DNA from: an uncultured Desulfobulbaceae bacterium
GTDB lineage: Bacteria > Desulfobacterota > Desulfobulbia > Desulfobulbales > CALZHT01
DNA: 64,000 bases
Direction of reading: 5' to 3'
Assembly: GCA_945787445.1 (NCBI GenBank)
Contig: CALZHT010000024.1
Location: forward strand, 2,398-66,397
Part shown: positions 7,952 through 63,886 of the stretch, piece by piece
How positions within the stretch are numbered: the first letter of the stretch is position 1
How the letters are laid out: the number at the start of each line of letters is the position of its first letter
Notes under the pieces: model-generated
Databases searched by the model: none
Told to the model about the DNA's origin: nothing
The model's input: the letters and a program-made list of their open reading frames with translations, nothing else
Translations under genes and position numbers: made by a program

Positions 7952-7956
7952 TTCAT

Positions 7957-9420: not shown

Positions 9421-9479
9421 CTGATTTTTCCGGCTAAATATGTGTTTCTGTGGAAATGAACATCATTTCTGGACAGAGA

Positions 9480-11619: not shown

Positions 11620-12360
11620 CTATAATTTTGCAACTTCCATTCCCGCCTCTTTCCAGTCGGCGAAAACAGCCTGATTGATGTTCTTGTAGCCGAGTTTCAT
11701 CAATTTCCGGTAAGCGCTGTAGCTGCGGCCGCCGGAGTTGCAGTAGACGATTATCCTTTTCTTTTTGTCGAGAACGCTCGATTGCGAGGCAAAGGTGGCC
11801 ACCGGAATATTGATTGACCCTGGTATGCGGCCCTCCTGGAACTCTTCCGGATCCCGGACATCGACTACCGTGAATGTGTCGGCGCCGCTTTTCATCAGGG
11901 CATTGAGGTCGCCGGGAGAAATTGTTATGGTCTCAATGCGCTTCTCGTAATCCGGCCCGGTGTAAATCGGGAATCCCTTTTCCTCCCAGACCGGCATGCC
12001 CTCGGCATAGACAAAGATATTTTCATAGCCGATCTCCATGGCCTTCTTAGCTGCTTTTTTACTCTTGCCGCATTTGACGCCATTGCAATAAAAAACGATT
12101 TTGGCCGACTTATCCGCCGGCAGATGGGAGACATACGTATCCCACTGTTTGACCGGGATATTGATCGCCCCTTTGATGTGGACCTCCTGGTATTCCTCGG
12201 GATTCCTGGCATCGACCACGGTTATCTGTGCGCCTGAATCAAGGAGGTTTTTCAGCCCATTGGTGTCAATGACCCGGTAGCCTTCAATTGATTTAGCAAA
12301 AACGCTTGCCGCCATGACTGCCCAAAAGATGAATGCAAATAAAACTTTTTTCTTTCTCAT
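11620..12360 (-). CDS. Secreted tandem-rhodanese-domain sulfurtransferase
   Basis: Signal peptide followed by two rhodanese modules with active-site CNGVKCGKS and CNSGGRSYSA loops. Confidence 0.8.
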   Translation of the reverse strand: MRKKKVLFAFIFWAVMAASVFAKSIEGYRVIDTNGLKNLLDSGAQITVVDARNPEEYQEVHIKGAINIPVKQWDTYVSHLPADKSAKIVFYCNGVKCGKSKKAAKKAMEIGYENIFVYAEGMPVWEEKGFPIYTGPDYEKRIETITISPGDLNALMKSGADTFTVVDVRDPEEFQEGRIPGSINIPVATFASQSSVLDKKKRIIVYCNSGGRSYSAYRKLMKLGYKNINQAVFADWKEAGMEVAKL

Positions 12361-13131: not shown

Positions 13132-15330
<2,199 letters not shown>

Positions 15331-44794: not shown

Positions 44795-44925
44795 AAATTT
44801 TGAAGGCTAATACCAAGTTGCATTCAAAGAGGTAACAAGCCGACGACGCAGCCAATTCAGTTCAATCCCACTTGAGGGGGACAAAGTTTAGAATTTGAAT
44901 GCGACGCGGTATAAGTGGTTACTGC
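44795..44925 (+). promoter_or_regulatory. Conserved structured 5' leader upstream of the HAD/SPS operon. It is homologous to the leader of the RRM gene at 47517-47789.
   Basis: A long-range stem GCATTCAAA (44818) / TTTGAATGC (44893) encloses the hairpin TCCCACTTGAGGGGGA. About 85% identical to the reverse complement of 47826-47975 apart from a 45-bp indel. Confidence 0.5.
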
Positions 44926-45735
44926 ATGAAAAAAGATGCTCTCCTGGCTAGTGACATGGATGGCACTGTCATCCCACTGGACGATAAAGAAGAACGCGCC
45001 GAAGAGATTCAGCATTTTAATACGCTTATTGAGCAACATTCAGGTGTTGCCCTTGCCTATGTGACCGGCAGGCACCTCGAGTTGGGCCTGGCCGGTGTCG
45101 AACAATACAGCCTCCCGTTGCCACATATTTTTGTCTGCGATGTGGGTACCACCATTTACCTGCGCGAGAATGGCCGGTGGAACCAGGACCAAGAGTATAA
45201 AAAAGACCTGTCCCGAGCATGGGGCGGCAGAACCGGTAAAGATATTGCGGTTTTTTTAGCGGAAGATAGCATACTAACCGCCCAAGAAGAAGAGAAACAA
45301 AAGGAATTCAAGCAAAGTTATTATGTTTCTCTCTCTATCGATCACAAAACTATCGTCAGTACAATTGAAAACCTCCTAGCGGAGAAAGGCGTAAAGGCCA
45401 ACGTTATATACAGTGTGGACACCAAAAAACATGTCGGCCTTGTTGATGTGCTACCCAGTGTTGCTGCCAAGGATTATGCTTTAAGTTATTTATGGAAGCG
45501 TCTTGAACTTGACATGGAAAGGATCGTCTATGCAGGAGATTCAGGCAACGACCTTCTTGCCTTTGTGAGCGGTTTCAACGCCATAGTGGTGAACAATACC
45601 GCTGCAGCAGTCAAAAAAGAGGTGCGTTGCCAGGCGCGGGATAAGGGCATCGAGCACAGGATCTTTTTTGCCGACCAAAAGTATGTGAAGGGCGTGATTG
45701 AAGGTTGTTATCATTTCAAACTGTTTACGGAGTAA
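44926..45735 (+). CDS. HAD-IIB family phosphatase, sucrose-phosphate phosphatase-like
   Basis: DxDGT motif (SDMDGTV), the C-terminal GDSGND motif, and genomic pairing with an SPS-like glycosyltransferase. The alternative start at 44899 lies inside the conserved leader. Confidence 0.65.
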   Translation: MKKDALLASDMDGTVIPLDDKEERAEEIQHFNTLIEQHSGVALAYVTGRHLELGLAGVEQYSLPLPHIFVCDVGTTIYLRENGRWNQDQEYKKDLSRAWGGRTGKDIAVFLAEDSILTAQEEEKQKEFKQSYYVSLSIDHKTIVSTIENLLAEKGVKANVIYSVDTKKHVGLVDVLPSVAAKDYALSYLWKRLELDMERIVYAGDSGNDLLAFVSGFNAIVVNNTAAAVKKEVRCQARDKGIEHRIFFADQKYVKGVIEGCYHFKLFTE

Positions 45736-45738
45736 TCG

Positions 45739-47097
45739 ATGGGATTGTACATTCAGATGCACAGCATGCACGGTTTATTCAGGAGTCATCATCTTGAATT
45801 GGGACGGGACGAAGATACCGGCGGGCAGATCCTGTATGTCCGGTATCTTGCTATCGAACTGGCCAAGCTTCCTGAGGTGGACAAAGTCGATATTATTGTT
45901 AGGCGGATTATTGATCCCGAGTATCCGGGATATGCGGATGAGATCGAAGAAGTTTCTCCGGATGTCAATATTGTGCGGATTGAATGCGGTCCTGAAAAAT
46001 ATATCATGAAGGTGGACCTCTGGCAGTACCTGCCGGAATTTGTCGAGAACTGCAAGGGATATATCGAGAGGATAGGCAGGAAGCCCGATATTCTGCACAG
46101 TAATTATGCAGATTCCGGCCTGGTATGCGCGATATTGTCAAAAGATTTGGGGATCCCCCAGGTGCATACCGGCCATTCGTTAGGAAAGCCCAAAATGGCC
46201 CGTCTTGCTGTTAACGACGAAAATTTTGCGAAGATGGATTCCATATATCATTTCACGGAACGGCTGGATGCTGAGCAGAAAACCATTGATAATGCCGCGG
46301 CCATAGTGGTCAGTACCGAAGAAGAGCGTCTATGCCAGTATAATATGTACCATGTGAACATTGATGACGGCAGATTTCAGGTTGTGCCGCCGGGAGTAAA
46401 TCTGAATAAGTTTTATCCAACGGGCGCCAACAGTAGGCGGGAATGGGACGTGAATGCCCGGCAGCGCTTGCTGGACCTTTTTGCTGCAGAACTCGACGAT
46501 CCGCAAAAACCTATAGTGTTTACGATTAGCAGGTTGGACTACAGGAAAAACCTGATCAGTCTGGTTAAAGCCTATGCATATGATGAGGAGCTGCAGGATA
46601 AGGTCAACCTTGTGATGGTGACAGGGACTCTCGGCAAAATGGGTAAGAATGAACAGACACTAATGGATGAAATGCTCCGTCTTGTTGATAGATGCAATCT
46701 GATGGGTAAGGTTTGCATTGTGAGGCATCTTGAATATAAGACGGAAGGAGGAGAAATTTACCGGATAGTCTATGATTCGAAAGGTGTGTTTGTTAATCCT
46801 GCCTTTCATGAACCTTTTGGCATCACCGTGATTGAGGCAAGCGCCACAGGTATTCCCGTGGTGGTCACCGACAATGGCGGGCCGGTGGAAATCCTTGAAA
46901 ACTGTGAATGCGGAGTGCTTGTTGATCCAAGAAATACCATGGCCATCGCCAAATCATGCTTACAGATCATCAATGACCCACCACTGTGGGAAGAGTATTC
47001 ACAAAACGGCATTGCCTTGACCAGAAAACATTATTCCTGGGAAGCAACCGCCAAAAGGGAACTCGCTCTTTTCAATCAGATTTTACGTAGTGAATGA
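45739..47097 (+). CDS. Sucrose-phosphate synthase-like GT-B glycosyltransferase (glucosyltransferase domain only)
   Basis: N-terminal HGLFRSHHLELGRDEDTGGQILYV matches the SPS signature (HGL.R....ELGRD.DTGGQV.YV). C-terminal GT1 E..G...EA motif. Confidence 0.75.
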   Translation: MGLYIQMHSMHGLFRSHHLELGRDEDTGGQILYVRYLAIELAKLPEVDKVDIIVRRIIDPEYPGYADEIEEVSPDVNIVRIECGPEKYIMKVDLWQYLPEFVENCKGYIERIGRKPDILHSNYADSGLVCAILSKDLGIPQVHTGHSLGKPKMARLAVNDENFAKMDSIYHFTERLDAEQKTIDNAAAIVVSTEEERLCQYNMYHVNIDDGRFQVVPPGVNLNKFYPTGANSRREWDVNARQRLLDLFAAELDDPQKPIVFTISRLDYRKNLISLVKAYAYDEELQDKVNLVMVTGTLGKMGKNEQTLMDEMLRLVDRCNLMGKVCIVRHLEYKTEGGEIYRIVYDSKGVFVNPAFHEPFGITVIEASATGIPVVVTDNGGPVEILENCECGVLVDPRNTMAIAKSCLQIINDPPLWEEYSQNGIALTRKHYSWEATAKRELALFNQILRSE

Positions 47098-49987: not shown

Positions 49988-52639
49988 TCAGCGGTTAAGC
50001 CTCCAATCATAAGGCGTGTGGTGCACTTTCAACTGATCCGTATTTGTATGCAGCCACTCTTTTTTTTCGGCATTATAAAGATACCCGGCAATAAACCTGA
50101 GGAGTTCTGGTTGGGTTTTGTCAAAATCAGAACTGTACCATTTGAATATCATAGAAATATCAACTTTTTTTTCTTTTCGGTTGATTTTGGTAGTGGCATT
50201 GATGAATACCTGGGCCGAGGCGTCGAGCTGTCGGTCGAGATGTTCAGGCGTGTAAGTCTCAATGGGCGGGCAGGTGCGGCTGGCGCAGACCAGAGCAAAG
50301 TGGATCCTCGGGTCCGGCTGCTGCACCCTGAAGGCAAGGCGTGGATCGGCAGCTTTGAATCGTCTATGCCACCGGTAGGGCGGCACTCCATTGCCGCGTA
50401 AAATACCATGCTCAATATCGCTAAGGGTGTAAAGATGATTGCCGATGGTGTACTGGACCCGCTCGAAAAACAACGGCACCTCCTTGACCGATTCGTTAAT
50501 TCCCAATTCGATAACACCGTGGATGACCAGAGCGTTAAATACGTTGGCCCAGAAAGCGATGCGAGCTTTGTCATCTGCCAGGGAGGATGGATCAAAATGT
50601 TTGAGGCAGGCCACGGCCCGTTGAAAATTGCGATAATAGTCGGAATGGCGGATGAGGGGGTAATCGATGCGTTGGCGATGGCCGTCATAAAACTGGCCGC
50701 GCAAGACATTCATGATCCTTTTGACTTCTTGACCGGGATCTTCTATAGCGGTTGTCTCTTCGTGAGACATATCAGGGCTGAGATTTCTGATTCGCAAAAG
50801 GAGCCTGGCCTTTTCCATAATCGGAATGGGCGGCGGCACCGGTTTTTCCCGCCTGGCATCAATATATTCAAGCACAGTTATGGCATAGCCGATGTGGGAG
50901 AAGGCCTGGGGAAAGTTGCCGGTAATTTCCTGAAACGTCGTATCATATTCTTCGCCGAATAGACCGAGATGGTTGGCATAGTTGTCAACCCGGCGCAGAT
51001 ATCCTTCCACCTCGTCAAAGCGTTTCTGGCGGATGAGACAGCGCAGATACCAGAACAAGCAGATGAGCCAGCCATGCTCCCGGCCGGGCAGGCCATCGTC
51101 GTTCTTGTAACGCAATGGAATGCCGCCAATGAGTAACTCTTTTTCAATTGCCTCGATGGTGCCTGCCATTCTCGGATCGTCGGCCGGCAGGAATCCAACC
51201 AGTGGAATGAGTAAGAGGGCGGCATCCACCTCGTTCGTTTCATAATGCTGGGTAAAAGTGTTGCGCCTGGAATTAAAGCCATTTTTCAGGATGTCTTCCC
51301 TGACCATCTCCCGTTCCTGCTTCCATTTATCGAGATCAGCCGGAAATCCGTAATGTTCGGCAATTTTGATGCCACGGTCAAGGGCAACCCAACACATCAC
51401 CTTTGAATGAGTAACATGGTGCGGCCCGGTTCTGAGTTCCCAGATGCCATTGTCTTTGTCGCGCCAGATTGTAACTACATGGTCAACCTGCCGCCTGACA
51501 AAGATCCAGTAGTCAGGATCAATTTTACCCACCAGCCGCGACATGGAGAAGATCATTTCCAGAAATTCACCATATATATCATGCTGATGCTGGCCGATGT
51601 TAAATTGTCCGGTCAGGACCGGACGTGAACCTTTATAACCCTTGAGATGTTCAAGCTGGTTTTCGCCATCGGGCGGAAGGGGCTCGCGAAGTTTATAGAG
51701 TACCTCAAAATGTGCTCCGCCCTCTCCTTTGGCGAGCTGTTTTACCCAGTCGAGATAGAGAGATACCTCCTGGATATGACCCAGCTCATAGAGGGCGGCC
51801 AAGGTCATGCTGGTGTCACGCACCCAGCTGAAGCGATAATCCCAGTTGCGTTGGCCGTAAACAATGGTGGGCAGGGAACAGGAAGCGGCAGCGGCAATGG
51901 CGCCGGTGTCCCTGAACTGGAGAAGCTTGAGCACCAAGGCGGAGCGGTCGAGTCCATCCTGCCAGAAGCCGTGCAACGGATATTTGCCGGTTTCCTGGGC
52001 CCGGGTCCATTCCAGCCAATATTTTTTTGTAGCGTTTAATAATTCCTGCAGAGCAGAAGGGGGCAGGCGCACATTTTTCTCGCCGTAGGTAGTGGAGAGC
52101 CATATTGTCTCATCCTGATTCAGAATGAAAATGGCCTGCTCGTTATGCCAGTCAAGATCTTTACTGCTGTAAAGAAAGAGAGTGTACTCATCTGCCTTTA
52201 TTTTGAATCCACCACCGGTAATGGGATGCCAGTCAGGAGCCAATCTGCCGTATTCGAACCGTGGGGAGCATTGGACCACCAAACGAATCCGACCTTTTAT
52301 CCCTCTAATACAGCGGATTAAACGGGTGGCGTTGGCAGGATCTTGTTCCGCTTCAGGCCCGGCGGCCATGAAATCGATGAGTTCCGCTTCGCCGTTTACG
52401 GTTCGGAATGTAGTAGAAAGGATATTTGTTCTGGGAATGTAGGTCTGTGCAGAATCCCATGGATCGGTAGGCTGAACCAGGAAACTCCCTCCTTTGTCAT
52501 CATCCAGGATAGCTCCAAACACTGATGATGAGTCGAGATACGGGAAGCACATCCAGTCAACCGCACCGTCATTGCCGACCAAAGCCAAGGTAAGACCATT
52601 GCCGATAATGCCGTATTCGCCGATTTTTTTAAAAGCCAT
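49988..52639 (-). CDS. Glycoside hydrolase family 15 (trehalase/glucoamylase-like) fused to a C-terminal DUF547 domain
   Basis: N-terminus GIIGNGLTLALVGNDGAVDWMCFPYLDSSSVFGAILD matches the GH15 N-domain. The (α/α)6 catalytic region is followed by an extra ~280 aa (DUF547-like HFALVCASRTCP). Confidence 0.7.
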   Translation of the reverse strand: MAFKKIGEYGIIGNGLTLALVGNDGAVDWMCFPYLDSSSVFGAILDDDKGGSFLVQPTDPWDSAQTYIPRTNILSTTFRTVNGEAELIDFMAAGPEAEQDPANATRLIRCIRGIKGRIRLVVQCSPRFEYGRLAPDWHPITGGGFKIKADEYTLFLYSSKDLDWHNEQAIFILNQDETIWLSTTYGEKNVRLPPSALQELLNATKKYWLEWTRAQETGKYPLHGFWQDGLDRSALVLKLLQFRDTGAIAAAASCSLPTIVYGQRNWDYRFSWVRDTSMTLAALYELGHIQEVSLYLDWVKQLAKGEGGAHFEVLYKLREPLPPDGENQLEHLKGYKGSRPVLTGQFNIGQHQHDIYGEFLEMIFSMSRLVGKIDPDYWIFVRRQVDHVVTIWRDKDNGIWELRTGPHHVTHSKVMCWVALDRGIKIAEHYGFPADLDKWKQEREMVREDILKNGFNSRRNTFTQHYETNEVDAALLLIPLVGFLPADDPRMAGTIEAIEKELLIGGIPLRYKNDDGLPGREHGWLICLFWYLRCLIRQKRFDEVEGYLRRVDNYANHLGLFGEEYDTTFQEITGNFPQAFSHIGYAITVLEYIDARREKPVPPPIPIMEKARLLLRIRNLSPDMSHEETTAIEDPGQEVKRIMNVLRGQFYDGHRQRIDYPLIRHSDYYRNFQRAVACLKHFDPSSLADDKARIAFWANVFNALVIHGVIELGINESVKEVPLFFERVQYTIGNHLYTLSDIEHGILRGNGVPPYRWHRRFKAADPRLAFRVQQPDPRIHFALVCASRTCPPIETYTPEHLDRQLDASAQVFINATTKINRKEKKVDISMIFKWYSSDFDKTQPELLRFIAGYLYNAEKKEWLHTNTDQLKVHHTPYDWRLNR

Positions 52640-52926
52640 GCTTCATTACGCCTTTTTCACTGTTGTAAATTTTCGTAACAGCTTGATATGATTTTTCTAT
52701 GCTTCCAGCCAGTATATCCAAAAATATACGAGAATATTATGAAAATCAAAAAATGGTTCGTTATTCCGTTTTTAAATATTAATAATTTTTCTCAAGTAGT
52801 GGTCTTGACATCGATATTTTTTTTGTGGTGCAATGACAAAACATTCCAAGACTACTGGTATAAACATATTAGAAATGTCTTAAGCATAGTAACAATATAT
52901 ATTCTAAGATTTGCAAGGAGGGGAGT

Positions 52927-53211
52927 ATGGCCAAGGCGATATGGAACAATGCGGTGCTGGCTGAGAGTGCCCATACAATTGTAGTTGAGGGCAATCATTA
53001 TTTTCCGCCGGACTCCGTCAGCCGGCAGTTTTTCAAGGAAAGCGATACCCATAGCACCTGTCCCTGGAAAGGGGAGGCAAGTTATTACCATATTGAGGTT
53101 GCAGGCCAGACCAATGAGGACGCAGCCTGGTACTATCCTGAACCAAAAGAGGCGGCCGCCCAGATCAAGAACCATATAGCCTTCTGGAAAGGTGTAAAGG
53201 TGGAGGGGTAA
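52927..53211 (+). CDS. DUF427 domain protein
   Basis: 94 aa (…CPWKGEASYY…DAAWYYPEP…) behind a strong aggaggggagt RBS. First gene of the ergothioneine-type operon. Confidence 0.6.
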   Translation: MAKAIWNNAVLAESAHTIVVEGNHYFPPDSVSRQFFKESDTHSTCPWKGEASYYHIEVAGQTNEDAAWYYPEPKEAAAQIKNHIAFWKGVKVEG

Positions 53212-53218
53212 TTCTCTT

Positions 53219-54313
53219 ATGCATGTCAATAACTGTATGCAGCACCATGATCTGGTGCATGCTTTTCAAGATGCCCTGGCCGAGAATTCCAGTCTGCTTC
53301 TGCGCAGATCACATGGCAACAATCCCGGCCATGATTTTGCCCTCTCCGTTGTCAAGGGTCTTGCCAAAATACCACGCCAACTCGATTGCCGCTTTCTCTA
53401 TGATGCCCATGGCAGCGAGCTGTATGAAAAGATCTGCCGGCAGCCTGAATATTATCCAACCCGGACAGAGGCTTCAATTCTCCGCCGGTTTGCCAAAGAG
53501 ATCAGGAGGATTACCGGACCGGTAACCCTTATCGAACTGGGCTCGGGCAGTTCGGTAAAAACCGACCATCTGCTTGCCGCCTATCTGGAGAAAGATCCCT
53601 CCGCATGTTACGTTCCCATTGATGTCAGCGAGACCGCTCTGCAACAGGCCGGGCATGCCATCACCGCGCAACGGCCCAATGTGCAGTTTATCGGCATCCA
53701 CGGCACCTATCATGACGGTTTCCCATTGGTCAACTGCGCCACTCCTGCCATGGTAATTTTTCTGGGCAGCACCATCGGTAATTTTACCGAGCAGGATACC
53801 GGTATCTTCCTCCAGTGGCTGTGGGACCATCTTGCCCCTGATGATTATTTTCTGCTGGGCATTGACCTGGTCAAAGACACTCATTTGTTGGAGGCGGCAT
53901 ATAACGATGGAGCAGGGGTGACCGCATCCTTTACAGAAAATTATTTTGCCAGGATGAATCGGGAACTCAAGAGCGGTATCGATATGGACGCTGTAGCGCA
54001 TTATGCTTTTTTTAATGAAAAGAAAAGTCAAGTTGAGATCTATGGGCACTTCAACCGTCCCCAAACCATCCATGTTGCCAAGTTCAATAAAAATTTTGCT
54101 GTGGAACGCGATGAAAAAATCCTGGTTGAAATCAGCCGCAAATTCAAGCTTAATGAGTTCATTCCTTATCTCGAGTCCCTTGGTTATGCATTGCGAAGGG
54201 GCTTCACCGACGAAAAAAAATGGTTCGCCCTCCTGCTCCTGCAGAAATCGGATACGCTAGTTAGAATTAATGACCGTAAGAACTCGAGACAGTATCGACC
54301 CAAGGAATCATAA
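53219..54313 (+). CDS. EgtD-like histidine N-alpha-methyltransferase (Methyltransf_33 family)
   Basis: EYYPTRTE...IL, LIELGSGSSVKT (SAM motif I), YVPIDVS and FLGSTIGNF motifs in EgtD order. Confidence 0.7.
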   Translation: MHVNNCMQHHDLVHAFQDALAENSSLLLRRSHGNNPGHDFALSVVKGLAKIPRQLDCRFLYDAHGSELYEKICRQPEYYPTRTEASILRRFAKEIRRITGPVTLIELGSGSSVKTDHLLAAYLEKDPSACYVPIDVSETALQQAGHAITAQRPNVQFIGIHGTYHDGFPLVNCATPAMVIFLGSTIGNFTEQDTGIFLQWLWDHLAPDDYFLLGIDLVKDTHLLEAAYNDGAGVTASFTENYFARMNRELKSGIDMDAVAHYAFFNEKKSQVEIYGHFNRPQTIHVAKFNKNFAVERDEKILVEISRKFKLNEFIPYLESLGYALRRGFTDEKKWFALLLLQKSDTLVRINDRKNSRQYRPKES

Positions 54314-54316
54314 CCT

Positions 54317-57300
54317 ATGGGGCTAAACTCGACCAGAGACGGACTTTGCGGCATATGTCCGGCAGGTTGCTGGGTCCGGGCCCATCTTGTTGATGAACGC
54401 ATTGTCAAAGTGGAAGCGCTTCCCGGTCACAGCTTAGGTATGATCTGCCGGCGGGGAATCCATTCTCCTGAAATCATCTATGATCCGAACAGGTTGAAGA
54501 CACCACTCAAAAGGCGAGGTCCCAGGGGCACCCATGAATTTGAATCCATCTCTTGGGATGATGCCTTCGGGATTATCGTTGAAAAACTACAGGCTCTCAA
54601 AAAAACAATGGGACCGGAATCAACCGCAATCTACACGGGCCGTGGCAGTTTCGACATGGCCATGTGCGATTTTTTCCAACCCCGGGATGTTGCGGTTTCC
54701 TCCGCCTCCAGTGTTTTGTTTCCATTCGGCTCCCCCAACACTCTGGGGGTAGGTGCTCTCTGTTATGTCTCTTTTGCCATGATCGCACCACATGTGACCA
54801 TGGGTGAGATGCTGATCACCATGGATATGGATATCGAACAGGCCGAATTCATTGTCATCTGGGGCGCCAATCCTGCCACTGATTCCCCGCCTTTGGCGCA
54901 CCGCCAGATCCTGCAGGCCAGGCAGCGCGGCGCCAGAATTGTTGCCATTGATCCGTATCGCAACCAAACTGCACGGGAGACCGAAGCAGATTGGGTACCG
55001 GTGCGGCCGGGTACGGACGGCGCTCTGGCTTTGGCCATGATTCAGGTCCTCATTGAGGAAGAGTTGTATGATGAGGAATTTGTTAATAACTGGACCATAG
55101 GATTTGACGAACTCAGCCGAATGACCCAACATTACCGGCCTGAGGTGGTTGAATCCATCACCAGTGTCCCGGAAGAAACTATCCGCAAACTGGCCCGGGA
55201 CCTTGCCGCGGCGAGGGGCGCCTGCCCGGTCATGTACACAGGTCTGGAATATTCGGACAGCGGCGTGCAAGCCATCCGGGCCGTATTTGTGCTCTGGGGC
55301 CTGGCCGGGCAGCTTGATGTGCCGGGCGGTTTACTCTTTCGCATGAAGGAGAATATATTTCCGCAGAACAGAAAGGGACTCCTTGCCAATCCTGACGTGC
55401 GCAAGGCCCTGGGTCGGGACCGCTTTCCGGTCTATAGCATGTACCGGGGCGAATCCCATGCCATTGGACTGCCAGATGCCGTGCTCAACGGAGATCCTTA
55501 TGCCATCCGGGCCCTTATTATCCTGGGTGGTTCCATCTGCACCTCCTGGCCCAACCCGGCCCTGTGGAAAAAAACCTTGAAAGCCCTTGATTTTCTGGTG
55601 TGCATCGACCGCTACCATACAGCAGATTCAGCCTATGCCGACATTGTCCTTCCAGCCACTACCATGTATGAGATCACATCTTATATGCGGTACGGACCGC
55701 TTTTCAAGATTCGTGAAAAGATGATCGAACCGGTGGGAGAGGCGCGCAGTGATTTTCTCATCCTGGCCGAGCTGGCTGAATGGCTTGGCTACGGCCATCT
55801 GTATCCTCAAACCGAAGAGGACATCGTGGCAAAGGCGCTTGATGGCACCGGTTTCACTGTTGAGGAGGTGCGCAGGCAGGACGGTGCGGTTCAAATACCC
55901 CCGGTCATGTTGCAGTACAAAAAATGGGAAAAGGGTCAGCTCAGATATGACAAAAAACCGGGCTTCAATACCCCAACCGGTAAATTTGAGATTTCTTCCA
56001 CAATTTTGGAGGAGCATGGCTATGACCCCCTGCCGGTATACACCGAACCTGGGGAAGGCCCTTTGACCCGGCCGGACCTGGCAAGGAAATATCCCTTGAT
56101 TTTCAACTCCGGCACCCGCACCAACTATGATTTCCGCAGCCAACACCATGGGGTCAAGGGATTGGTTGAAAACCATCCAGATCCCCAGGTGACCATCAAC
56201 AGAAAAGATGCAAAAAAGAGAGGTATTTCGAACCGTGACTGGGTATGGGTGGAGACTACACGCGGCAGGGTAAAATTTCGAGCCATGGTCACCGATGATA
56301 TTGTCGAAGGTGCTGTTGACGCCAACATGGGCGGTGGCGGCCCGCTCGGCCCGCCATCCTGGCAGGACTGCAATGTCAACGAACTCACCGATCTCAAGCA
56401 CTGCGATCCCATCTCTGGTTTTCCTATCTTCAAGACCTTACTCTGCGAGGTAACAAAGATCGAGGGCCAGCACGTAGATGTGGTCCGTAGCATGCAGGTT
56501 GATGAAGAGACCGAGCCTGTTACGTTTGGACCAATTCCCAAGGCATCGACCCGCAGGGTCTACCTAGACCATAACGCCACCACCCCGATTGATCCGGAGG
56601 TGACCGAAGCAATGCTTCCCTTCCTGCAGAAAGAGTGGGGCAACCCTTCCTCCATCCACAGTTTGGGCAATCAGGCGCACACCCAGATGGAGGCCGCCCG
56701 CCGTAAAGTGGCGCAAGCATTGAATTGCACGGCCAGGCGTGTGCTTTTCACCAGCGGCGGCTCCGAAGCCAATAACCTGGTCATCCAGGGTGTGGTGCAC
56801 AGCCATAAGGGTAGGTGCCATCTCATTACCTCTTCTGTGGAACACCCGGCAGTGCTTGCCACCTTCAGGGCCATGGAGAAGATGGGCAGCGAGATAACAG
56901 TGCTTTCCGTTGATAAAGGAGGGAGAGTGTCGCCGGATGACCTTCGCAGGGCTATTCAAGCAAACACCGCCCTGGTCAGTATTATGTATGCCAACAATGA
57001 GACCGGCACCATCGAGCCTATTCAGGAGCTGGCTTGCATTACCCATGAACATGGCATCCTCTTTCATACCGATGCGGTGCAGGCATTGGGCAAGGTACCG
57101 CTGGATGTGGATGAGCTTGGGGTGGATATGTTGTCGGTGTCAGCCCACAAAACCTATGGCCCAAAAGGGATAGGTGCGTTGTATGTCAGAAAAGGAGTGG
57201 AGCTGTCGCCGCTTATTTACGGCGGCGGCCAGGAACACGGCCTGCGCTCCGGCACCGAAAACGTGGCAGGTATCATTGGATTCGGCAAGGCTAGCGAACT

Positions 57301-57712
57301 GGCACAGCGATGGCTTAACCAGGGCGATATGAGGAGGGTAAAAAATTTGCGGGACCGATTGGAACAGGGAATCCTCTCTATAGTACCAAAGGCATTAAGT
57401 AACAGCCCTCCTAAATCTCGTCTGCCCAATACACTAAGTATGACTTTGACTGGAATTCGGGGAGAATCCCTGGTGTTGATGCTCGATCGCCTTGGAGTGT
57501 TTTTCTCTTCCGGTTCAGCCTGTAAATCGGGAAATCCCGCACCATCGGGCACTCTCCTTGCCATGGGTCTCACCGAAGAACAGGCCCATTGTACGATTAG
57601 GCTTTCGCTCGGGGTAGGAAATACAGAGGAGGATATTGACTATTCCCTGGAATGCCTGCGAGAGGTTTTAACAGATAAAGGCAAAGCAGTTCGTTTTAGC
57701 CCCTGCAGATAA
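54317..57712 (+). CDS. Fusion protein: N-terminal molybdo/tungstopterin bis-PGD oxidoreductase domain (~740 aa, with 4Fe-4S CxxCxxxC...C) plus C-terminal class-V PLP cysteine desulfurase (IscS/NifS-like). Metallopterin-dependent ergothioneine synthase-like architecture.
   Basis: CGICPAGCWVRAHL...C Fe-S cluster motif, then Mo-bisPGD domains. Desulfurase signatures follow: VYLDHNATTP, SAHKTYGPKGIGALYVRKG and the catalytic-loop SSGSACKSG. Start is 3 nt after the EgtD-like stop. Confidence 0.7.
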   Translation: MGLNSTRDGLCGICPAGCWVRAHLVDERIVKVEALPGHSLGMICRRGIHSPEIIYDPNRLKTPLKRRGPRGTHEFESISWDDAFGIIVEKLQALKKTMGPESTAIYTGRGSFDMAMCDFFQPRDVAVSSASSVLFPFGSPNTLGVGALCYVSFAMIAPHVTMGEMLITMDMDIEQAEFIVIWGANPATDSPPLAHRQILQARQRGARIVAIDPYRNQTARETEADWVPVRPGTDGALALAMIQVLIEEELYDEEFVNNWTIGFDELSRMTQHYRPEVVESITSVPEETIRKLARDLAAARGACPVMYTGLEYSDSGVQAIRAVFVLWGLAGQLDVPGGLLFRMKENIFPQNRKGLLANPDVRKALGRDRFPVYSMYRGESHAIGLPDAVLNGDPYAIRALIILGGSICTSWPNPALWKKTLKALDFLVCIDRYHTADSAYADIVLPATTMYEITSYMRYGPLFKIREKMIEPVGEARSDFLILAELAEWLGYGHLYPQTEEDIVAKALDGTGFTVEEVRRQDGAVQIPPVMLQYKKWEKGQLRYDKKPGFNTPTGKFEISSTILEEHGYDPLPVYTEPGEGPLTRPDLARKYPLIFNSGTRTNYDFRSQHHGVKGLVENHPDPQVTINRKDAKKRGISNRDWVWVETTRGRVKFRAMVTDDIVEGAVDANMGGGGPLGPPSWQDCNVNELTDLKHCDPISGFPIFKTLLCEVTKIEGQHVDVVRSMQVDEETEPVTFGPIPKASTRRVYLDHNATTPIDPEVTEAMLPFLQKEWGNPSSIHSLGNQAHTQMEAARRKVAQALNCTARRVLFTSGGSEANNLVIQGVVHSHKGRCHLITSSVEHPAVLATFRAMEKMGSEITVLSVDKGGRVSPDDLRRAIQANTALVSIMYANNETGTIEPIQELACITHEHGILFHTDAVQALGKVPLDVDELGVDMLSVSAHKTYGPKGIGALYVRKGVELSPLIYGGGQEHGLRSGTENVAGIIGFGKASELAQRWLNQGDMRRVKNLRDRLEQGILSIVPKALSNSPPKSRLPNTLSMTLTGIRGESLVLMLDRLGVFFSSGSACKSGNPAPSGTLLAMGLTEEQAHCTIRLSLGVGNTEEDIDYSLECLREVLTDKGKAVRFSPCR

Positions 57713-57864
57713 TGGGTTATAGCCCGTCACTTTTCCAGCTTGCCCGATTTTAGAGTTGACATCGTTGTTTATGTTATTCATATTGCCTAACATATTTTCA
57801 TGAAAGGTCTTAAAAGACATGGCGAATTACAGACATCAATTAACACAAATAGAAGGGGAGTAAA

Positions 57865-58434
57865 ATGAATCAACATCAGACATTAATTTACAAAATTTTC
57901 GTATTAATTTTGACAATCTTGCTTATGATCGGCTGCGCAACGCAGATCTCAAAACCTACAAGAGAACCGTTGCCTTCTAAGGTGCGGTTCGGAGAATTTA
58001 CCAATATCGAAATGAAAGCGGTGGGGATCAGTGAAACCTATGCAGAAGCCGAGGCTAACCAGAAAGCATTGCGAAAGATAGATGAGATACTATTCAATGA
58101 TATGAGAATGCTTTATCCCAACCTCAAACGGATTGAAAACGGTGAAGATTTTTCAAAAGCAAGCGACAAGACCTTGCAAATTACTCCAATTATTAAAGAA
58201 ATAAAATTCGTCGGCGGAGGAGCACGTTTTTGGGTTGGTGCTATGGCAGGGAGTTCAGCGGTTCTGATGGAGGCCATCTTTCGTGACGGTTCAAGCTCTG
58301 AAATTATTGCTGACCCGGAATTTATTCGGGTAGCAAACGCGTATTCTGGCGGATGGAGTATGGGAGTCACTGATAACAAAATGCTGGAAGACATTGCCAG
58401 GGATATTGTGAATTACGCTTCTGTAAATAAATAG
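57865..58434 (+). CDS. Lipoprotein of unknown function
   Basis: Lipobox LLMIGC. No recognised catalytic motif. Confidence 0.5.
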   Translation: MNQHQTLIYKIFVLILTILLMIGCATQISKPTREPLPSKVRFGEFTNIEMKAVGISETYAEAEANQKALRKIDEILFNDMRMLYPNLKRIENGEDFSKASDKTLQITPIIKEIKFVGGGARFWVGAMAGSSAVLMEAIFRDGSSSEIIADPEFIRVANAYSGGWSMGVTDNKMLEDIARDIVNYASVNK

Positions 58435-58629
58435 ATAGTTTATGAATTGGAAACAACATGTTCCAGCATCCTCCAAGTCTGCGACTTTCCGGATGGGAGC
58501 TAGATAGAAAAAGATAGGCTCAAGGCCATCGGAGAAATGTTGGATGGCCTTTAGCCTGATGATAAGAGCCTTTTTTTTCTTTGACTTCAGCACTGTAAGC
58601 AGTGAAAAAGGGGGAATTTTTTTTGAAAG

Positions 58630-59259
58630 ATGAAAACTACAGATAGGATTTCCCTCGTTATTGCCATATTCCTTCTAATTTTTCTTGTCCCGTTTGATTC
58701 TCTGGCTCTCAGGTGCGGCAACCGGCTGGTGAGCAAGGGTGACAGAAAAATCGAAGTGTTGGAGAAATGCGGCGAACCTGCATTGGTTGAAGAATGGCGG
58801 GAAGAACTTGAAATCTTCAAAGGCAGGAAAGGAAAAAAATTTAAAAGCATACGTAATTTGTATATAGAAGAATGGACATATAACTTCGGTTCGAAGCGAT
58901 TTCTGCAATTCCTGATATTCAAGAATGGTAGGCTGTATACGATAATCGAAGGCGAGAGAGGATACGATGGGGAGATTCCAGCGCTTTCAGACAAGACTCG
59001 ATGCGGAAAAATGCTGGACATAGGGGACAGGAAAATTGAAGTGCTTATCAAGTGCGGTGAACCTACTTTGAAAGATGTGCGGATTGAAGAGCGTGTGGAT
59101 GAAAGGTTTGATAAAGATAATAATATCCATGAAGATCGCACCGTAGAAGTAACTACCGAAGAGTGGTCCTATAACTTCGGACCCCATAGTTTTCTGCAAT
59201 TCATCAAGATCGAAAACGGCAGGGTAATAAGTATAGAACAGGGGGGGTATGGATTTTGA
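58630..59259 (+). CDS. Secreted DUF2845-like protein with two tandem repeats
   Basis: Two copies of RCG..L...GDRKIEVL.KCGEP...........W.YNFG...FLQF..I.NGR. Confidence 0.55.
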   Translation: MKTTDRISLVIAIFLLIFLVPFDSLALRCGNRLVSKGDRKIEVLEKCGEPALVEEWREELEIFKGRKGKKFKSIRNLYIEEWTYNFGSKRFLQFLIFKNGRLYTIIEGERGYDGEIPALSDKTRCGKMLDIGDRKIEVLIKCGEPTLKDVRIEERVDERFDKDNNIHEDRTVEVTTEEWSYNFGPHSFLQFIKIENGRVISIEQGGYGF

Positions 59260-59456
59260 CTCCTTTTCGTAACATCTTATCTCCATATATCTTTTCAGCA
59301 CAAAGAAAATTGTCATTTTTCCTTGCTCGGCCTTGACATGGAAGTTAATTGTTGCATTACAATAATTATATCGCAAACACAAACAGAAATGGAAAATATG
59401 CGGCATTTACTACCTGCTGTATATTTTGGTGATGAAACTGTAACAAAGGGTGGTTT

Positions 59457-59891
59457 ATGGAAATTAAAGATCCTAATGTGCATCAGAAATTGATTGAAAT
59501 GTGCGATTGCTATATGGAGACAGACCATATCCAGCAATTGAAGAGACTGGCCAATTCGGAGAGCAAGGATATTGATGAGGATGCGGTGAAATATCTTGCT
59601 CTTGCTCTTCTCCATGCCGTGTCTGAGAAGGCGAGAAAGCTTACTTTCAAGAAGAAGAAGGGGAAATACACCATATTATATGAAAACGACGGCAAGAACT
59701 CTCTGCCGATCCCTGCTCATGATATTATCGAAAAAATTTTCGCAAACTGCCGTTCCATTATGCACCTTGAAGAGGATAAGGGAAAGATGCCCTTGTCCTT
59801 AGGCCTCAAAAACGACAGCATAGAAGTGCAGATGAAAATTGAATTGAAAGGCGATGACGAAGCCTTGAAATTCAAAATGCCTGCGCTCTAA
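59457..59891 (+). CDS. Hypothetical protein
   Basis: 144-aa ORF with no motif recognised. Confidence 0.3.
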   Translation: MEIKDPNVHQKLIEMCDCYMETDHIQQLKRLANSESKDIDEDAVKYLALALLHAVSEKARKLTFKKKKGKYTILYENDGKNSLPIPAHDIIEKIFANCRSIMHLEEDKGKMPLSLGLKNDSIEVQMKIELKGDDEALKFKMPAL

Positions 59892-60044
59892 AAACAGGAC
59901 TGGAAAAGTCCAAGGGCTTCAGTGCTTTCCCGGCTTCTTATTTCAGATAACCTGATCACGGCAGATTTATAACTTATACCTACTTTAAAGAAGTGCCTAA
60001 AGTGCCTAAAGTCATGGTATTTATGCCCCCTTGCGGGGTGCTTT

Positions 60045-60665
60045 TCTGATTAGATGATTTTAACTAGTCTCAGTTAAGGTTTAAGCCCCCGCCTTGAGGC
60101 GGGTAGATTTATCACTTCCAATAGATGTTGTATACTGCCTCCAAAATATGGAGGTAGAGCATGGAATACAGATATGGAAGTCATACAGTTTTCAATATTA
60201 AATATCATTTTGTTTGGGTAACCAAGTATCGGTATAAAGTTCTGGTTGGCGATGTAGCATTACGAGTACGAGAATTAGTCCGCCAAACCTGTGAGTCATT
60301 TGAAATAGAGATCATAAAAGGTGTAGTGAGTAAAGATCATGTTCATTTGTATGTATCAGCACCTCCGACAATGGCACCAAGCGAAATAATGAGGCGAATA
60401 AAAGGGCGCTCATCGAGTAAATTGTTTGAAGATTACCCCAAATTACGAAAGAGATTTTGGGGACGTCATTTCTGGGCTCGTGGATATTTTTGTGTGTCAT
60501 CGGGTCAAATAACAGACGAGATGATTAAAACATACTTAGAACATCATTTTGAACCAAGTAAAGATGATAATTTTAGGACAGAGTCATAACGGGTCTTGGA
60601 CCCGTATCCGGACTTTCAGTCCTTAATAATAACCCTCCGTCTTTAGACGGTGGTTGTTAAGTTTA
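60045..60665 (+). mobile_element. IS200/IS605-family insertion sequence (tnpA only) with subterminal hairpins
   Basis: Left-end hairpin CCCCCGCCTTGAGGCGGG and right-end CCGTCTTTAGACGG flank the Y1 transposase gene. Confidence 0.7.
60161..60589 (+). CDS. tnpA: IS200/IS605 family Y1 (HUH) transposase TnpA
   Basis: HuH motif HVHLYVS and the catalytic Y in the ...RGYFCVSSG region. 142 aa. Confidence 0.9.
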   Translation: MEYRYGSHTVFNIKYHFVWVTKYRYKVLVGDVALRVRELVRQTCESFEIEIIKGVVSKDHVHLYVSAPPTMAPSEIMRRIKGRSSSKLFEDYPKLRKRFWGRHFWARGYFCVSSGQITDEMIKTYLEHHFEPSKDDNFRTES

Positions 60666-62593: not shown

Positions 62594-63886
62594 TTAGCCA
62601 CAGAGGGCCGATTCAATTCTGCTTGAATAACGGATATTCTGCCGCCATAATTTTCCAAGCAGAAAAAAAAGAACAAAAAAGGAAAGCAACTCCCTCAGTT
62701 TCCTGAGGATGATCCTCATATTATGTCCGGCACCACACAAGAGAGCATTGATTTTGTCTCCGATACTTCCCTTCAGCCAGTTTCTGCCTAATTTCCCGTC
62801 TTCCTTCATATGCCCGATGATTGGCTCCACTGCACTTCGACGTTCCACCCCGTGGCCGCGATATCCTCGGTCAACATAACATCGCTCAGGAACAACACCG
62901 GTCACTCGACTCACTTGATCAAGCGCACCTTCAAGCGTATGACCGTCAAAGGGATTGCCCGGCAGGGCCTGCATGCCGACAACAAAATTATCCCGACTTG
63001 TCGTGACAACGCTCACCTTGACTCCAAACTCATATTTCTTGTGCACCTTGCCCTTGGCGATGCATTCAACTTCCGGCGCATGGATACTGTAAAGTTTGTT
63101 CTTGTCCTGCTTCTGTTGATCAAGCATCCGTTCCGTCAGCTCAAGTTCTTCATGAAATTCGGCATGAAGGTCGGGATCCGGCAAAATCTTCCGCAGAATA
63201 TCCCGATACACTCGGCCAAGATAGGTCTTCAATGTCCGTATTTCTTTTTTGGCACGTTTGAACTGGCGGGCATGAGCGTAAGAAGACGCTTTCCGCAAAG
63301 CCCTGGGGCCGAGCCGGGAATAACTCTGCCGAAGATTGATGCCGAACGTCTGGGCCAGGCGTACCAATCTTTCGCGGCATCGATTGTAGGAACGAGAGTC
63401 TGTTGGATATCGGACTGCCTTAGGCTGCACGGTTGTGTCTACGTTGACTCGCTTCAGGCTTGTCTCCTTCACCGCGCCACTGCGAAGTCCGGCCTGCAGT
63501 GTTTCCGCCAGGATCATTTCACATCCTTTTTCACCAATACGTTTACGCCATCTTGACAGGGTAGAAAAATCGATGGGGAGTTGGTGTTGAAAGTACGTCT
63601 CACCGCAGAAGTATTGCCAGTAAGGGTTCTCAACCCATTTCATTACAACCGCTTCATCGGATAAACCATAGGCATGACCAAGATAGCTCAGGCCAACCAT
63701 GAGCCGAATGGGAATTCCGGGCCGTCCTTTTTTTGCGGAGTAAAATTGGCCGAACTCCTTCTCGAAAACATCCCAATCAATGAGAAGAGCGAGCCTATAA
63801 AGCTCATGGTTACGATTCAGAATGTTTTCGAGTCGTTCACGAAAAAGCTCCATCCGACGATCTTCTTTTTTGCTCGAAGGCTGCAT
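62594..63886 (-). CDS. IS5-family (IS1182-like) DDE transposase
   Basis: 430 aa with a DDE_Tnp_1-type organisation (…VDTTVQPKAVRYPTDS…YVDRGYRG…). Confidence 0.75.
   Translation of the reverse strand: MQPSSKKEDRRMELFRERLENILNRNHELYRLALLIDWDVFEKEFGQFYSAKKGRPGIPIRLMVGLSYLGHAYGLSDEAVVMKWVENPYWQYFCGETYFQHQLPIDFSTLSRWRKRIGEKGCEMILAETLQAGLRSGAVKETSLKRVNVDTTVQPKAVRYPTDSRSYNRCRERLVRLAQTFGINLRQSYSRLGPRALRKASSYAHARQFKRAKKEIRTLKTYLGRVYRDILRKILPDPDLHAEFHEELELTERMLDQQKQDKNKLYSIHAPEVECIAKGKVHKKYEFGVKVSVVTTSRDNFVVGMQALPGNPFDGHTLEGALDQVSRVTGVVPERCYVDRGYRGHGVERRSAVEPIIGHMKEDGKLGRNWLKGSIGDKINALLCGAGHNMRIILRKLRELLSFFVLFFLLGKLWRQNIRYSSRIESALCG

Follow-up and report, generated by a model that had tools for sequence, protein, structure and literature searches.

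Synthesis of ergothioneine, an antioxidant, by the metallopterin-dependent ergothioneine synthase (MES) route requires no oxygen and has been known since 2022 (Beliaeva and Seebeck, JACS Au, PMC9516567). Four MES homologues (CaMES, AbMES, EaMES, and hvMES) gave ergothioneine in E. coli, and CaMES alone was sufficient in this host, without DUF427 (PMC9516567). Sulfur transfer in CaMES is intramolecular; mutating K952, C1074, C1135, or C153 abolished ergothioneine, and mutating Cys1097 lowered CaMES only 2-fold (PMC9516567). Here we describe a locus in which an EgtD-MES pair, one more uncharacterised member of a pathway with four tested enzymes, is preceded by a DUF427 gene. New here is the DUF427 link; the EgtD-MES pathway itself was already known.

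Organization of the locus

Three closely spaced, non-overlapping ORFs lie in the same direction on the forward strand at positions 52927–57712 of the window, i.e., the whole 64-kb stretch of DNA analysed. They are the DUF427 gene (52927..53211, 94 aa), encoding a candidate ergothioneine-associated accessory protein, the EgtD gene (53219..54313, 364 aa), encoding a predicted SAM-dependent L-histidine N-alpha-trimethyltransferase with hercynine (trimethylhistidine) as product, and the MES fusion gene (54317..57712, 1131 aa), encoding a putative metallopterin/cysteine-desulfurase protein. An earlier note on this DNA had delineated the same DUF427-EgtD-fusion arrangement; the ORFs are exactly as it gave them and Pfam agrees. 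A gap of 7 nt separates the DUF427 stop from the EgtD ATG, and one of 3 nt the EgtD stop from the ATG of the fusion. A Shine-Dalgarno-like purine run is located 5' of all three starts, with AAGGAGGGGAG read immediately 5' of the DUF427 ATG. Because the genes are tightly packed but do not overlap, their translational coupling is only plausible.

The operon's promoter presumably lies in the AT-rich intergenic stretch 52640..52926 (forward strand) between a divergent GH15/DUF547 gene and DUF427. It contains one sigma-70-like match (52663–52692), and matches in 52640–52926 equal the shuffled expectation. As no promoter or terminator at the DUF427-EgtD-MES locus exceeded chance in comparison with shuffled sequence, we infer the operon purely from spacing and synteny. 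No Rfam riboswitch, including those of the Moco and SAM families, was found in 52640..52926. The 64-kb window contains no genes for Mo/W cofactor biosynthesis or molybdate/tungstate transport, and there was no EgtB-like gene among its scanned proteins. The MES gene has EgtD and an unannotated 189-aa ORF as its neighbours. A single rhodanese gene occurs in the window (11620–12360), 40 kb from the operon.

The MES fusion protein

The fusion aligned end to end with CaMES, whose sequence was recovered from a Caldithrix abyssi contig (L065), with 62% identity over 1129 aligned residues. All nine family-defining or mutated CaMES residues (the four Fe-S cysteines, Cys153, Lys952, Cys1074, Cys1097, and Cys1135; residue set from the main text and Table S1 of PMC9516567) are kept, which bears out the MES match proposed in the earlier note and supports the assignment of the fusion as a probable metallopterin-dependent ergothioneine synthase. 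The identity and E-values of the locus proteins are far beyond chance.

The N-terminal metallopterin module (bis-MGD type; residues 1–714; 54317..56458) matched Pfam models (Molybdopterin 59–488, Molydop_binding 596–707), its best solved structure being acetylene hydratase 2e7z (E 2.2e-66). Molybdop_Fe4S4 scored 21.5 bits at residues 9–55, slightly below the Pfam cut-off of 22.7. The N-terminal CxxCxxxC...C motif is present, with the predicted [4Fe-4S] cysteines C11, C14, C18, and C44 (codons 54347–54448) mapping to CaMES C14/17/21/48. Cys149 (codon 54761–54763), the predicted Mo/W ligand, maps to CaMES C153 and sits in GVGALCYVSFAM. Between the Pfam boundaries 707 and 748 lies the poorly conserved inter-module linker (residues 715–747; 56459..56557), the columns of which have no consensus in the alignment.

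The C-terminal PLP-dependent cysteine desulfurase module (residues 748–1131 plus stop codon; 56558..57712) matched Aminotran_5 at 748–1109 (E 1.5e-86), cysteine desulfurases in the PDB down to E 2.7e-105, and NifS/IscS models with 370–495 bits. A housekeeping NifS/IscS was rejected as the identity of the fusion (TIGR03402 NifS, 495 vs 530.75 bits; TIGR02006 IscS, 371 vs 643 bits). The module is thus predicted to work like a NifS/IscS desulfurase, yet it is fused and not an orthologue. Its putative PLP lysine Lys945 (57149–57151) is part of an SAHK motif and maps to CaMES K952, and the predicted persulfide Cys1069 (57521–57523) in the loop SSGSACKSG maps to C1074; both the [4Fe-4S] motif and the intact desulfurase-loop cysteine noted earlier are accordingly present. 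Cys1092 (57590–57592) maps to CaMES C1097 and the penultimate, putative relay residue Cys1130 (57704–57706) to C1135, the protein ending in ...FSPCR and the gene, as read, in TGC AGA TAA. All these features are on the forward strand.

Essential residues are kept across the 85 MES sequences collected, contig-truncated copies aside. The positions of Cys149, Lys945, and Cys1069 are invariant (85/85), the Fe-S cysteine positions are identical wherever covered (84 or 85 of 85), and variation is confined to the position matching CaMES Cys1097. At least 589 GTDB species-level genomes from many phyla encode a MES relative. EgtD adjoins MES in 68 of the 80 GTDB loci examined, a frequency that no other gene family near MES approaches in these loci. 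These data confirm that predicted oxygen-independent, Mo- or W-dependent ergothioneine synthesis is widespread. The pathway had been called sparsely sampled, which holds for experiments but not for sequences.

The histidine methyltransferase EgtD

The 364-aa ORF matched PF10017 (histidine-specific methyltransferase; E 3e-95) and the PDB structure of EgtD 4uy7 (E 1.4e-58), and scored 313.3 bits against the TIGR03438 egtD equivalog model (cut-off 290.9). EasF was rejected as the identity of the methyltransferase (162 bits vs cut-off 205.6). Seven of eight histidine-contact residues (Y39, Y56, N166, Y206, T213, E282, and S284 in 4uy7 numbering) are identical and correspond to Y61, Y78, N188, Y228, T235, E304, and S306 of this EgtD, so that its placement in the EgtD family by the earlier note was well founded. 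Substitutions relative to 4uy7 are F47 to Y69 and M252 to I274. A role of EgtD Met252 was reportedly described by Vit and co-workers in 2015. Histidine-contact roles have been described for Tyr39, Phe47, Tyr56, Asn166, Tyr206, Thr213, Glu282, and Ser284 (M. smegmatis/M. tuberculosis numbering; PMC8593015), and an Ile at the Met252 position also occurs in the EgtD found alongside an active MES in Abyssubacteria (PMC9516567 Figure S1).

DUF427 and its genomic context

The 94-aa ORF matched PF04248 (DUF427; E 7.8e-35) and belongs to the beta-tent fold of the 3djm type, a fold that MsrB, GFA, and the ligand-binding CULT domain also have. Over 32 sequences, twelve aromatic residues (W6, Y25, F26, H42, W47, Y53, Y54, W68, Y69, Y70, F86, and W87) are invariant, as is Cys45, which sits in the motif H-x-x-C-P-W-K-G-x-A-S-Y-Y. 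An 'aromatic cage plus Cys' site is an idea suggested at the sequence level.

At least 8000 close DUF427 homologues were scored. The order DUF427-EgtD-MES also occurs in the locus of the closest MES relative (L162, 70% identical), which has different flanking genes and an 11-nt overlap of DUF427 with EgtD, and it recurs in L137. In L005 and L034 an intact DUF427 gene comes immediately downstream of MES, and in L010 and L030 decayed DUF427 remnants precede EgtD-MES. Co-occurrence of DUF427 and MES, which the earlier note had singled out for checking, is thus recurrent in several loci but limited to about 1/12 of MES loci, with DUF427 absent from ~90%. MES-linked DUF427 copies do not form a clade (mean identity 0.61 among themselves and 0.62–0.63 to all others); the link therefore spans the whole DUF427 subfamily.

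Among the 80 closest metagenomic relatives of DUF427, 23 have EgtB, EgtD, or MES within 5 kb; for those flanked by 1.4 kb or more on each side the count is 13 of 32. We estimate, rather than compute from a control, a chance of ~0.3% for a single-copy gene to lie within 5 kb of another. These metagenomic loci are not phylogenetically independent, two of their architectures (A and C) each being clade-like. The loci combining DUF427 with ergothioneine genes display at least four gene orders. The commonest immediate neighbour of DUF427 is an EgtB-family sulfoxide synthase (17/80 loci; median gap 31 bp; same strand in 16/17), followed by EgtD. One order consists of class-V aminotransferase, DUF427, disulfide reductase, ProV-like ATPase, EgtU-like permease-binding protein, EgtB, and EgtD; the EgtB of this cluster scored 527 bits (cut-off 360), and the top PDB match of its binding domain is 'ergothioneine transporter EgtUC' (E 5.6e-53). 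DUF427 stands between the EgtE-like lyase and the EgtU-like importer in full ergothioneine clusters. Other neighbours are an EgtU-like importer, a flavoprotein disulfide reductase, a peroxiredoxin, and a GST. In an independent sample of four long contigs, one carried EgtB-EgtD-DUF427 and three had no egt gene near DUF427; overall, DUF427 lies away from any ergothioneine gene in ~60–70% of its loci.

A genomic association of DUF427 with ergothioneine genes is hence observed in many unrelated bacteria; we found no such link in the literature. The view that DUF427 may be an additional component gains comparative genomic support, although the gene accompanies a minority of MES loci. DUF427 is neither essential nor exclusive to the ergothioneine pathway, its dispensability following from the function of CaMES in E. 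coli without it.

Proposed mechanism and alternative explanations

The best explanation, to which we assign a probability of roughly 0.88, is that DUF427, EgtD, and MES constitute a single operon for making ergothioneine without oxygen; in our best reading, DUF427 would handle the product afterwards. With SAM as donor, EgtD would place three methyl groups on the alpha-amino nitrogen of L-histidine, yielding hercynine. The C-terminal PLP domain of MES would convert L-cysteine to alanine and hold the sulfur as a persulfide on Cys1069, from where it would pass to the Mo or W bis-metallopterin centre within the same polypeptide, relayed by the penultimate Cys1130 on a flexible C-terminal tail. In the N-terminal module, Cys149 would ligate this metal centre, with the [4Fe-4S] cluster nearby on C11/C14/C18/C44. 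Attack of the hercynine imidazole C2 on the metal-sulfido species would then release ergothioneine. Desulfuration, relay, and C-S steps are attributed to the present protein by homology with the Caldithrix enzyme, for which they have been either demonstrated or proposed. The function of DUF427 we infer from its context and fold: after synthesis, the betaine may be bound by the invariant aromatic residues, and Cys45 may take part in thiol/disulfide exchange, either for redox recycling or for ergothioneine-dependent reduction, with a flavoprotein disulfide reductase as possible partner in some organisms.

We tentatively propose, at clearly less than even odds, that the ~93-aa DUF427 subfamily is a dedicated ergothioneine component that goes with EgtB-, MES-, and import-type (EgtUV-like) modules and acts as a monothiol ergothioneine-binding 'ergoredoxin', with a neighbouring flavoprotein disulfide reductase as partner in some genomes. 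At similar odds, DUF427 may instead be a small protein of general thiol-redox or stress function, often co-regulated with antioxidant genes, including those for ergothioneine, and not specific to ergothioneine. Such a role would suit the many DUF427 loci without an ergothioneine gene that carry Bcp/AhpC peroxiredoxin, GST, RclA/MerA-like flavoprotein reductase, YCII, or ThiS-like genes, the three long contigs free of egt genes, and the fact that CaMES requires no partner in E. coli. It is less easily reconciled with the EgtB family and EgtD as first and second immediate neighbours, with the position of DUF427 inside full ergothioneine clusters, and with an association common to EgtB and MES, sulfurising enzymes of unrelated chemistry. 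It is improbable that DUF427 is a true third biosynthesis component, for instance by delivering or holding hercynine or by protecting or reducing a reactive sulfur intermediate. DUF427 directly adjoins biosynthetic genes, as seen in the EgtD overlap in L162 and the short gap after EgtB, and its invariant surface, rich in aromatic residues, might accommodate a trimethylammonium group; however, EgtB and MES have unrelated mechanisms and intermediates, so a common helper step is hard to name, most MES loci lack the gene, MES alone suffices in E. coli, and DUF427 also occurs with importer and reductase genes, where a biosynthetic part is less obvious.

A role of the fusion unconnected with ergothioneine, as a respiratory or detoxifying sulfur reductase (polysulfide or thiosulfate type) or as an acetylene-hydratase-like enzyme, in either case with an acquired desulfurase, we regard as very improbable. 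Its partial matches to PhsA/polysulfide reductase (NF012032, 281 bits; 2vpw, E 4e-62) contrast with a PhsA cut-off of 694 bits, and the comparison with respiratory reductases suggested earlier gave no score reaching the curated cut-offs for thiosulfate/polysulfide, DMSO, nitrate, or formate enzymes. The fusion has no twin-arginine signal, its N-terminus leading straight to the Fe-S motif without RR, and no PsrB/PsrC-type partner genes are adjacent. Its similarity to a proven ergothioneine maker, with every probed residue kept, and the adjoining EgtD, here and in most homologous loci, also argue against a reductase.

With DUF427 read as acting on ergothioneine after its synthesis, the gene offers a concrete, testable handle on cellular ergothioneine use and recycling, especially in anaerobes. 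This lead builds on its position beside synthesis genes of two unrelated chemistries, an ergothioneine-type importer, and a disulfide reductase. Ergothioneine would be the first functional context for the DUF427 Pfam domain, and the 'ergoredoxin' idea, if true, would give DUF427 a role and bacteria, anaerobes included, an enzymatic ergothioneine redox cycle.

Comparison with known systems

The fusion resembles CaMES in its two-module architecture, its length (1131 vs 1136 aa), its overall identity, and its key residues; both have acetylene hydratase as their closest solved structure (PMC9516567), and EgtD is co-encoded in most MES-carrying genomes. It differs in lineage, this MES being nearest to MAGs labelled Desulfuromonadales, Deltaproteobacteria, or Myxococcales. 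EgtD is immediately upstream here, whereas the L065 contig stops 51 nt upstream of the Caldithrix MES match, and DUF427 leads the operon here, whereas the MES paper makes no mention of DUF427 (PMC9516567). The published description of the DUF427 structure 3djm from Rhodobacter sphaeroides has no ergothioneine context. The beta-tent fold group comprises MsrB, GFA, cereblon CULT, Yippee/Mis18, and RIG-I CTD (Lupas et al. 2015, PMC4287342); DUF427 has the fold alone in common with MsrB and GFA (5–10% identity).

The EanB/EgtD system of Chlorobium and archaea is likewise oxygen-independent, uses EgtD-made trimethylhistidine, and brings persulfide-derived sulfur straight to the imidazole C2, but EanB, a rhodanese-like sulfurtransferase, lacks both a metal cofactor and a fused desulfurase. 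The aerobic EgtB/EgtD(/EgtC/EgtE) pathway, present in mycobacteria and numerous other bacteria, has EgtD and the end product in common with the MES route, and in this survey DUF427 adjoins EgtB-EgtD pairs as well as EgtD-MES. In contrast, it forms the C-S bond with a non-heme iron sulfoxide synthase that depends on O2 and then employs a PLP C-S lyase; the present operon encodes no homologue of EgtB, EgtC, or EgtE. Eukaryotic Moco sulfurases (ABA3/MOCOS) and XdhC-type systems are similar to MES in that a persulfide of a NifS-like desulfurase provides the terminal sulfido ligand of the molybdenum cofactor. There, sulfuration is a one-off maturation of xanthine-oxidase-family enzymes, whereas in MES it must recur at every turnover and the sulfur exits in the product (PMC9516567).

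Operon structure and identity of EgtD and MES

ORF calling recovered three co-directional genes exactly where the earlier note had placed them, namely DUF427 (52927–53211, 94 aa; PF04248, E = 7.8e-35), EgtD (53219–54313, 364 aa; PF10017 histidine-specific methyltransferase, E = 3e-95), and the metallopterin-dependent ergothioneine synthase (MES) fusion (54317–57712, 1131 aa; Pfam domains Molybdop_Fe4S4, Molybdopterin, Molydop_binding, and Aminotran_5). All lie on the same strand, with gaps of 7 nt (DUF427/EgtD) and 3 nt (EgtD/MES). DUF427 is preceded by an AT-rich region of ~290 nt and a divergent GH15/DUF547 gene, and MES is followed by a 152-nt gap and a gene at 57865 without family match. 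Counts from promoter and terminator consensus scans equalled the shuffled expectation and did not inform transcript boundaries, and an Rfam search of 52300–58800 for riboswitches or other RNA elements gave zero matches at E ≤ 1. It is thus from spacing and from the gene order kept elsewhere, not from signals, that we infer an operon. An ORF overlapping the DUF427 start (52688–52984, + strand, 98 aa) and antisense ORFs inside the three genes were treated as spurious.

MES was described in 2022 as an N-module akin to tungsten acetylene hydratase with a fused, working cysteine desulfurase; four homologues converted trimethylhistidine to ergothioneine in E. coli, and sulfur transfer works within one polypeptide only (PMC9516567). 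In the characterised Caldithrix abyssi enzyme (CaMES), mutation of K952, C1074, C1135, or C153 abolished ergothioneine production and C1097S halved it, and homologues were defined by conserved Cys153, Lys952, Cys1074, Cys1097, and Cys1135 (PMC9516567, Table S1). Pairwise alignment of the window MES to CaMES (1136 aa, taken from the C. abyssi contig, locus L065) showed 62% identity over 1129 positions and conservation of all nine functional residues, in support of the MES reading of the fusion proposed earlier. CaMES C14/17/21/48 correspond to C11/14/18/44 of the window MES, C153 to C149, K952 to K945, C1074 to C1069, C1097 to C1092, and C1135 to C1130. Where contigs are not truncated, the essential residues are invariant across 85 collected MES sequences; variation is confined to the position equivalent to CaMES C1097, in agreement with the mutagenesis. 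Three otherwise full-length homologues (L030, L042, L066) carry Ser or Gly at the equivalent of window Cys1092, which fits the published half-activity of C1097S. An MES near-identical to that of the window is encoded on a 5.5-kb contig of MAG GCA_945787035.1.

The earlier note had also considered that the fusion might group with respiratory reductases. Polysulfide/thiosulfate reductase did follow among the solved-structure matches of the N-module, behind acetylene hydratase as the best one (2e7z, E = 2.2e-66). None of the NCBIfam models of respiratory or assimilatory Mo-enzymes came near its curated cut-off for the window MES, the protein begins straight with the Fe-S motif and lacks a Tat signal, and no electron-transfer or membrane subunit genes adjoin it. 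Structure match, NCBIfam scores, N-terminus, and neighbouring genes together therefore exclude a respiratory reductase. Mo/W cofactor and Mo/W transport genes were absent among the ~40 ORFs scanned in the 64-kb window.

The window EgtD scored 313.3 bits against the NCBI equivalog cut-off of 290.9, the related EasF model failed, and Mycobacterium smegmatis EgtD (4uy7) was matched with an E-value of 1.4e-58. Of the residues compared in the 4uy7 alignment, Phe47 is replaced by Tyr and Met252 by Ile. Met252 reportedly has a role in specificity (work of Vit et al. 2015). Ile also occupies this position in the Abyssubacteria EgtD that partners an active MES. Tyr39, Tyr56, Asn166, Tyr206, Thr213, Glu282, and Ser284, with roles in histidine binding described in PMC8593015, are kept.

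Distribution and neighbourhood of MES

More than 120 full-length MES fusions with 66–71% identity to that of the window were found by protein search, and scanning a single genome for each GTDB species revealed an MES relative in at least 589 genomes. The pathway, previously called sparsely sampled, is so with respect to experiments, not to sequences. Among the matches listed, the nearest relatives were encoded in MAGs labelled Desulfuromonadales, Deltaproteobacteria, or Myxococcales. Neighbourhoods were compared for the best 80 loci (L001–L080) of the at least 589 genomes, all with full-length identities of 60–69%. The MAGs and isolates concerned are labelled as Desulfuromonadales, Geobacter and relatives, Desulfomonilaceae, Gemmatimonadota, Acidobacteriota, Myxococcales, Scalindua, Nitrospirota, Magnetococcales, Actinomycetota, and further groups. 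Other labels of MES-bearing MAGs are Chromatiaceae, 'Rickettsiales', and Actinomycetes. With these and with Gemmatimonadota, Myxococcales, and Acidobacteriota, the range as judged by MAG labels extends beyond the 'exclusively anaerobic' distribution given in 2022.

EgtD adjoins MES in 68 of the 80 best loci, and in most of the others the contig breaks off close to the gene. Clustering of all flanking ORFs of these loci revealed no other general MES partner; the remaining recurrent clusters consisted of antisense shadow ORFs or of neighbours confined to particular lineages. OpuC/EgtUV-type ABC transporter genes occur at some loci (ATPase in nine, fused binding-protein-permease in six), a hint that transport of trimethylhistidine or ergothioneine is sometimes encoded beside the synthase. 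Given at least 589 genomes and this regular pairing, the MES-EgtD pair of the window is an ordinary additional member of a known family and of modest interest by itself. It is the association with DUF427, not the EgtD-MES core, that makes the locus worth following up.

Genomic surroundings of the operon

Compatible-solute sugar genes flank the operon (44899–47097 and 49988–52639) and encode a sucrose-phosphate phosphatase, a sucrose-phosphate-synthase-like glycosyltransferase, and a divergent GH15 trehalase-like protein fused to DUF547. Just 3' of the operon are IS200/IS605-type and IS5-family transposases (60161–60589, 62594–63886), and at 58001–60000 the G+C content falls locally to 0.41 with a jump in GC skew; a segment that is mobile, or was rearranged recently, may lie close to the operon.

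A quaternary-amine demethylation cluster is located 45 kb from the operon (5610–10247, - strand, plus 352–1730), with an ABC transporter nearby. It comprises two full-length MttB-family methyltransferases (5610–7190 and 7957–9420), a pterin-binding methyltransferase (7154–7951), and a corrinoid-activation-like protein (9480–10247), all on the - strand. No in-frame stop is apparent in either MttB gene, so both proteins are apparently of the non-pyrrolysine type. The MttB family acts on betaines, a class of compounds that includes the trimethyl betaines hercynine and ergothioneine. At 11620–12360 and 13132–15327 (- strand), the window encodes a rhodanese with two domains and the catalase-peroxidase KatG. 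KatG suggests that the host meets oxygen or peroxide despite the oxygen-independent pathway. Because of KatG, and because many MES lineages are not obviously strict anaerobes, 'anaerobic' describes the chemistry of the operon and not necessarily the lifestyle.

DUF427 recurs beside ergothioneine genes

The earlier note had proposed to examine whether DUF427 co-occurs with MES homologues. Among the 80 GTDB loci, only a few had DUF427 near MES. Intact copies directly follow MES in L005 and L034, and L050 has a truncated copy. Two MAGs labelled Deltaproteobacteria have decayed copies upstream of an intact EgtD-MES pair, as a short fragment (L010:1471–1557) or with in-frame stops and a frameshift (L030:324–600). 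These remnants suggest that the DUF427-EgtD-MES operon is ancestral and tolerates loss of DUF427. The closest MES relative found (L162, 70% identical), in a different MAG and between different flanking genes, likewise has the order DUF427-EgtD-MES; there, the DUF427 and EgtD genes share 11 nt.

The reverse search started from the window DUF427 and took its 80 closest relatives from metagenomes (62–76% identical). A core ergothioneine gene lies within 5 kb of DUF427 in 23 of the 80 loci, and in 13/32 of those with flanking sequence of at least 1.4 kb on either side; by our own rough estimate, two genes present once each in a genome of 4 Mb would lie this close by chance in ~0.3% of cases. An EgtB/OvoA-family sulfoxide synthase (DinB_2 + FGE-sulfatase) is immediately upstream in 17/80 loci (same strand in 16 of the 17 pairs, median gap 31 bp), EgtD is present in 14/80, and full-length MES in three (L101, L137, L145); L095 has a shorter MES-like ORF close to DUF427.

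Five gene orders were distinguished: (A) LysR, EgtB-like, DUF427, PhnD-like binding protein, Bcp; (B) EgtB, EgtD, DUF427; (C) SufS/EgtE-like class-V aminotransferase, DUF427, RclA/MerA-like flavoprotein disulfide reductase, ProV-like ATPase, EgtU-like fused permease-binding protein, EgtB, EgtD; (D) DUF427 together with EgtD and MES, variously arranged; and (E) DUF427, then the disulfide reductase alone. Since order A and order C each behave like a clade, not every locus counts as independent. The order C supercluster was seen in the metagenomic contigs L110 (4702–12230), L125, L156, and L117. Its EgtB scored 527 bits against a curated cut-off of 360, the best PDB match of its binding domain was the ergothioneine transporter EgtUC (9egi, E = 5.6e-53), and its flavoprotein (for example L117:1956–3338) is a candidate ergothioneine-disulfide reductase. 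Four separate long, Pfam-annotated contigs (one EgtB-EgtD-DUF427, one with an adjacent peroxiredoxin, two with unrelated contexts) fit the rate seen in the census.

DUF427 copies linked to MES resemble one another no more closely (mean identity 0.61) than random pairs of the set do (0.62–0.63), which argues that the ergothioneine link runs across the subfamily and is not confined to one clade. At loci without nearby ergothioneine genes, DUF427 often neighbours a gene for a GST-like protein or for a peroxiredoxin of the Bcp/AhpC type (L087, L107, L148, L155; L082, L098, L100, L107, L166). A ThiS/MoaD-like 95-aa gene is located just upstream of DUF427 in eight loci. The common theme of these neighbours is thiol or sulfur redox. 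As judged by comparative genomics, the recurrent, multi-architecture association of this DUF427 subfamily with ergothioneine genes is a real signal. In the literature searched, no paper mentioned both 'DUF427' and 'ergothioneine' and no gene-neighbourhood study or MES follow-up reported such a link; the association is, as far as searched, unreported.

Possible role of DUF427

At least 8000 DUF427 homologues were scored. Conservation is strong: among 32 sequences with source labels from several phyla, identity was 68–80%, and the invariant residues include His42, Cys45, Trp47, Lys48, Tyr53, Tyr54, Trp68, Tyr69, Tyr70, Phe86, and Trp87. AlphaFold modelled DUF427 with high confidence (pLDDT 97). 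In 2015, DUF427 was assigned to the group of beta-tent folds, with neither a zinc site nor a function (PMC4287342).

From context and fold, we favour a role after ergothioneine synthesis, because CaMES makes ergothioneine without a partner, EgtB and MES have no intermediate in common, and DUF427 is also found beside an importer and a disulfide reductase. Two weaker readings are a biosynthetic helper and a protein of general thiol stress that shares no more than its regulation with the ergothioneine genes. In the favoured role after synthesis, DUF427 would bind the ergothioneine betaine and would exchange thiol and disulfide via Cys45, by analogy to the monothiol redoxins that serve mycothiol or bacillithiol.
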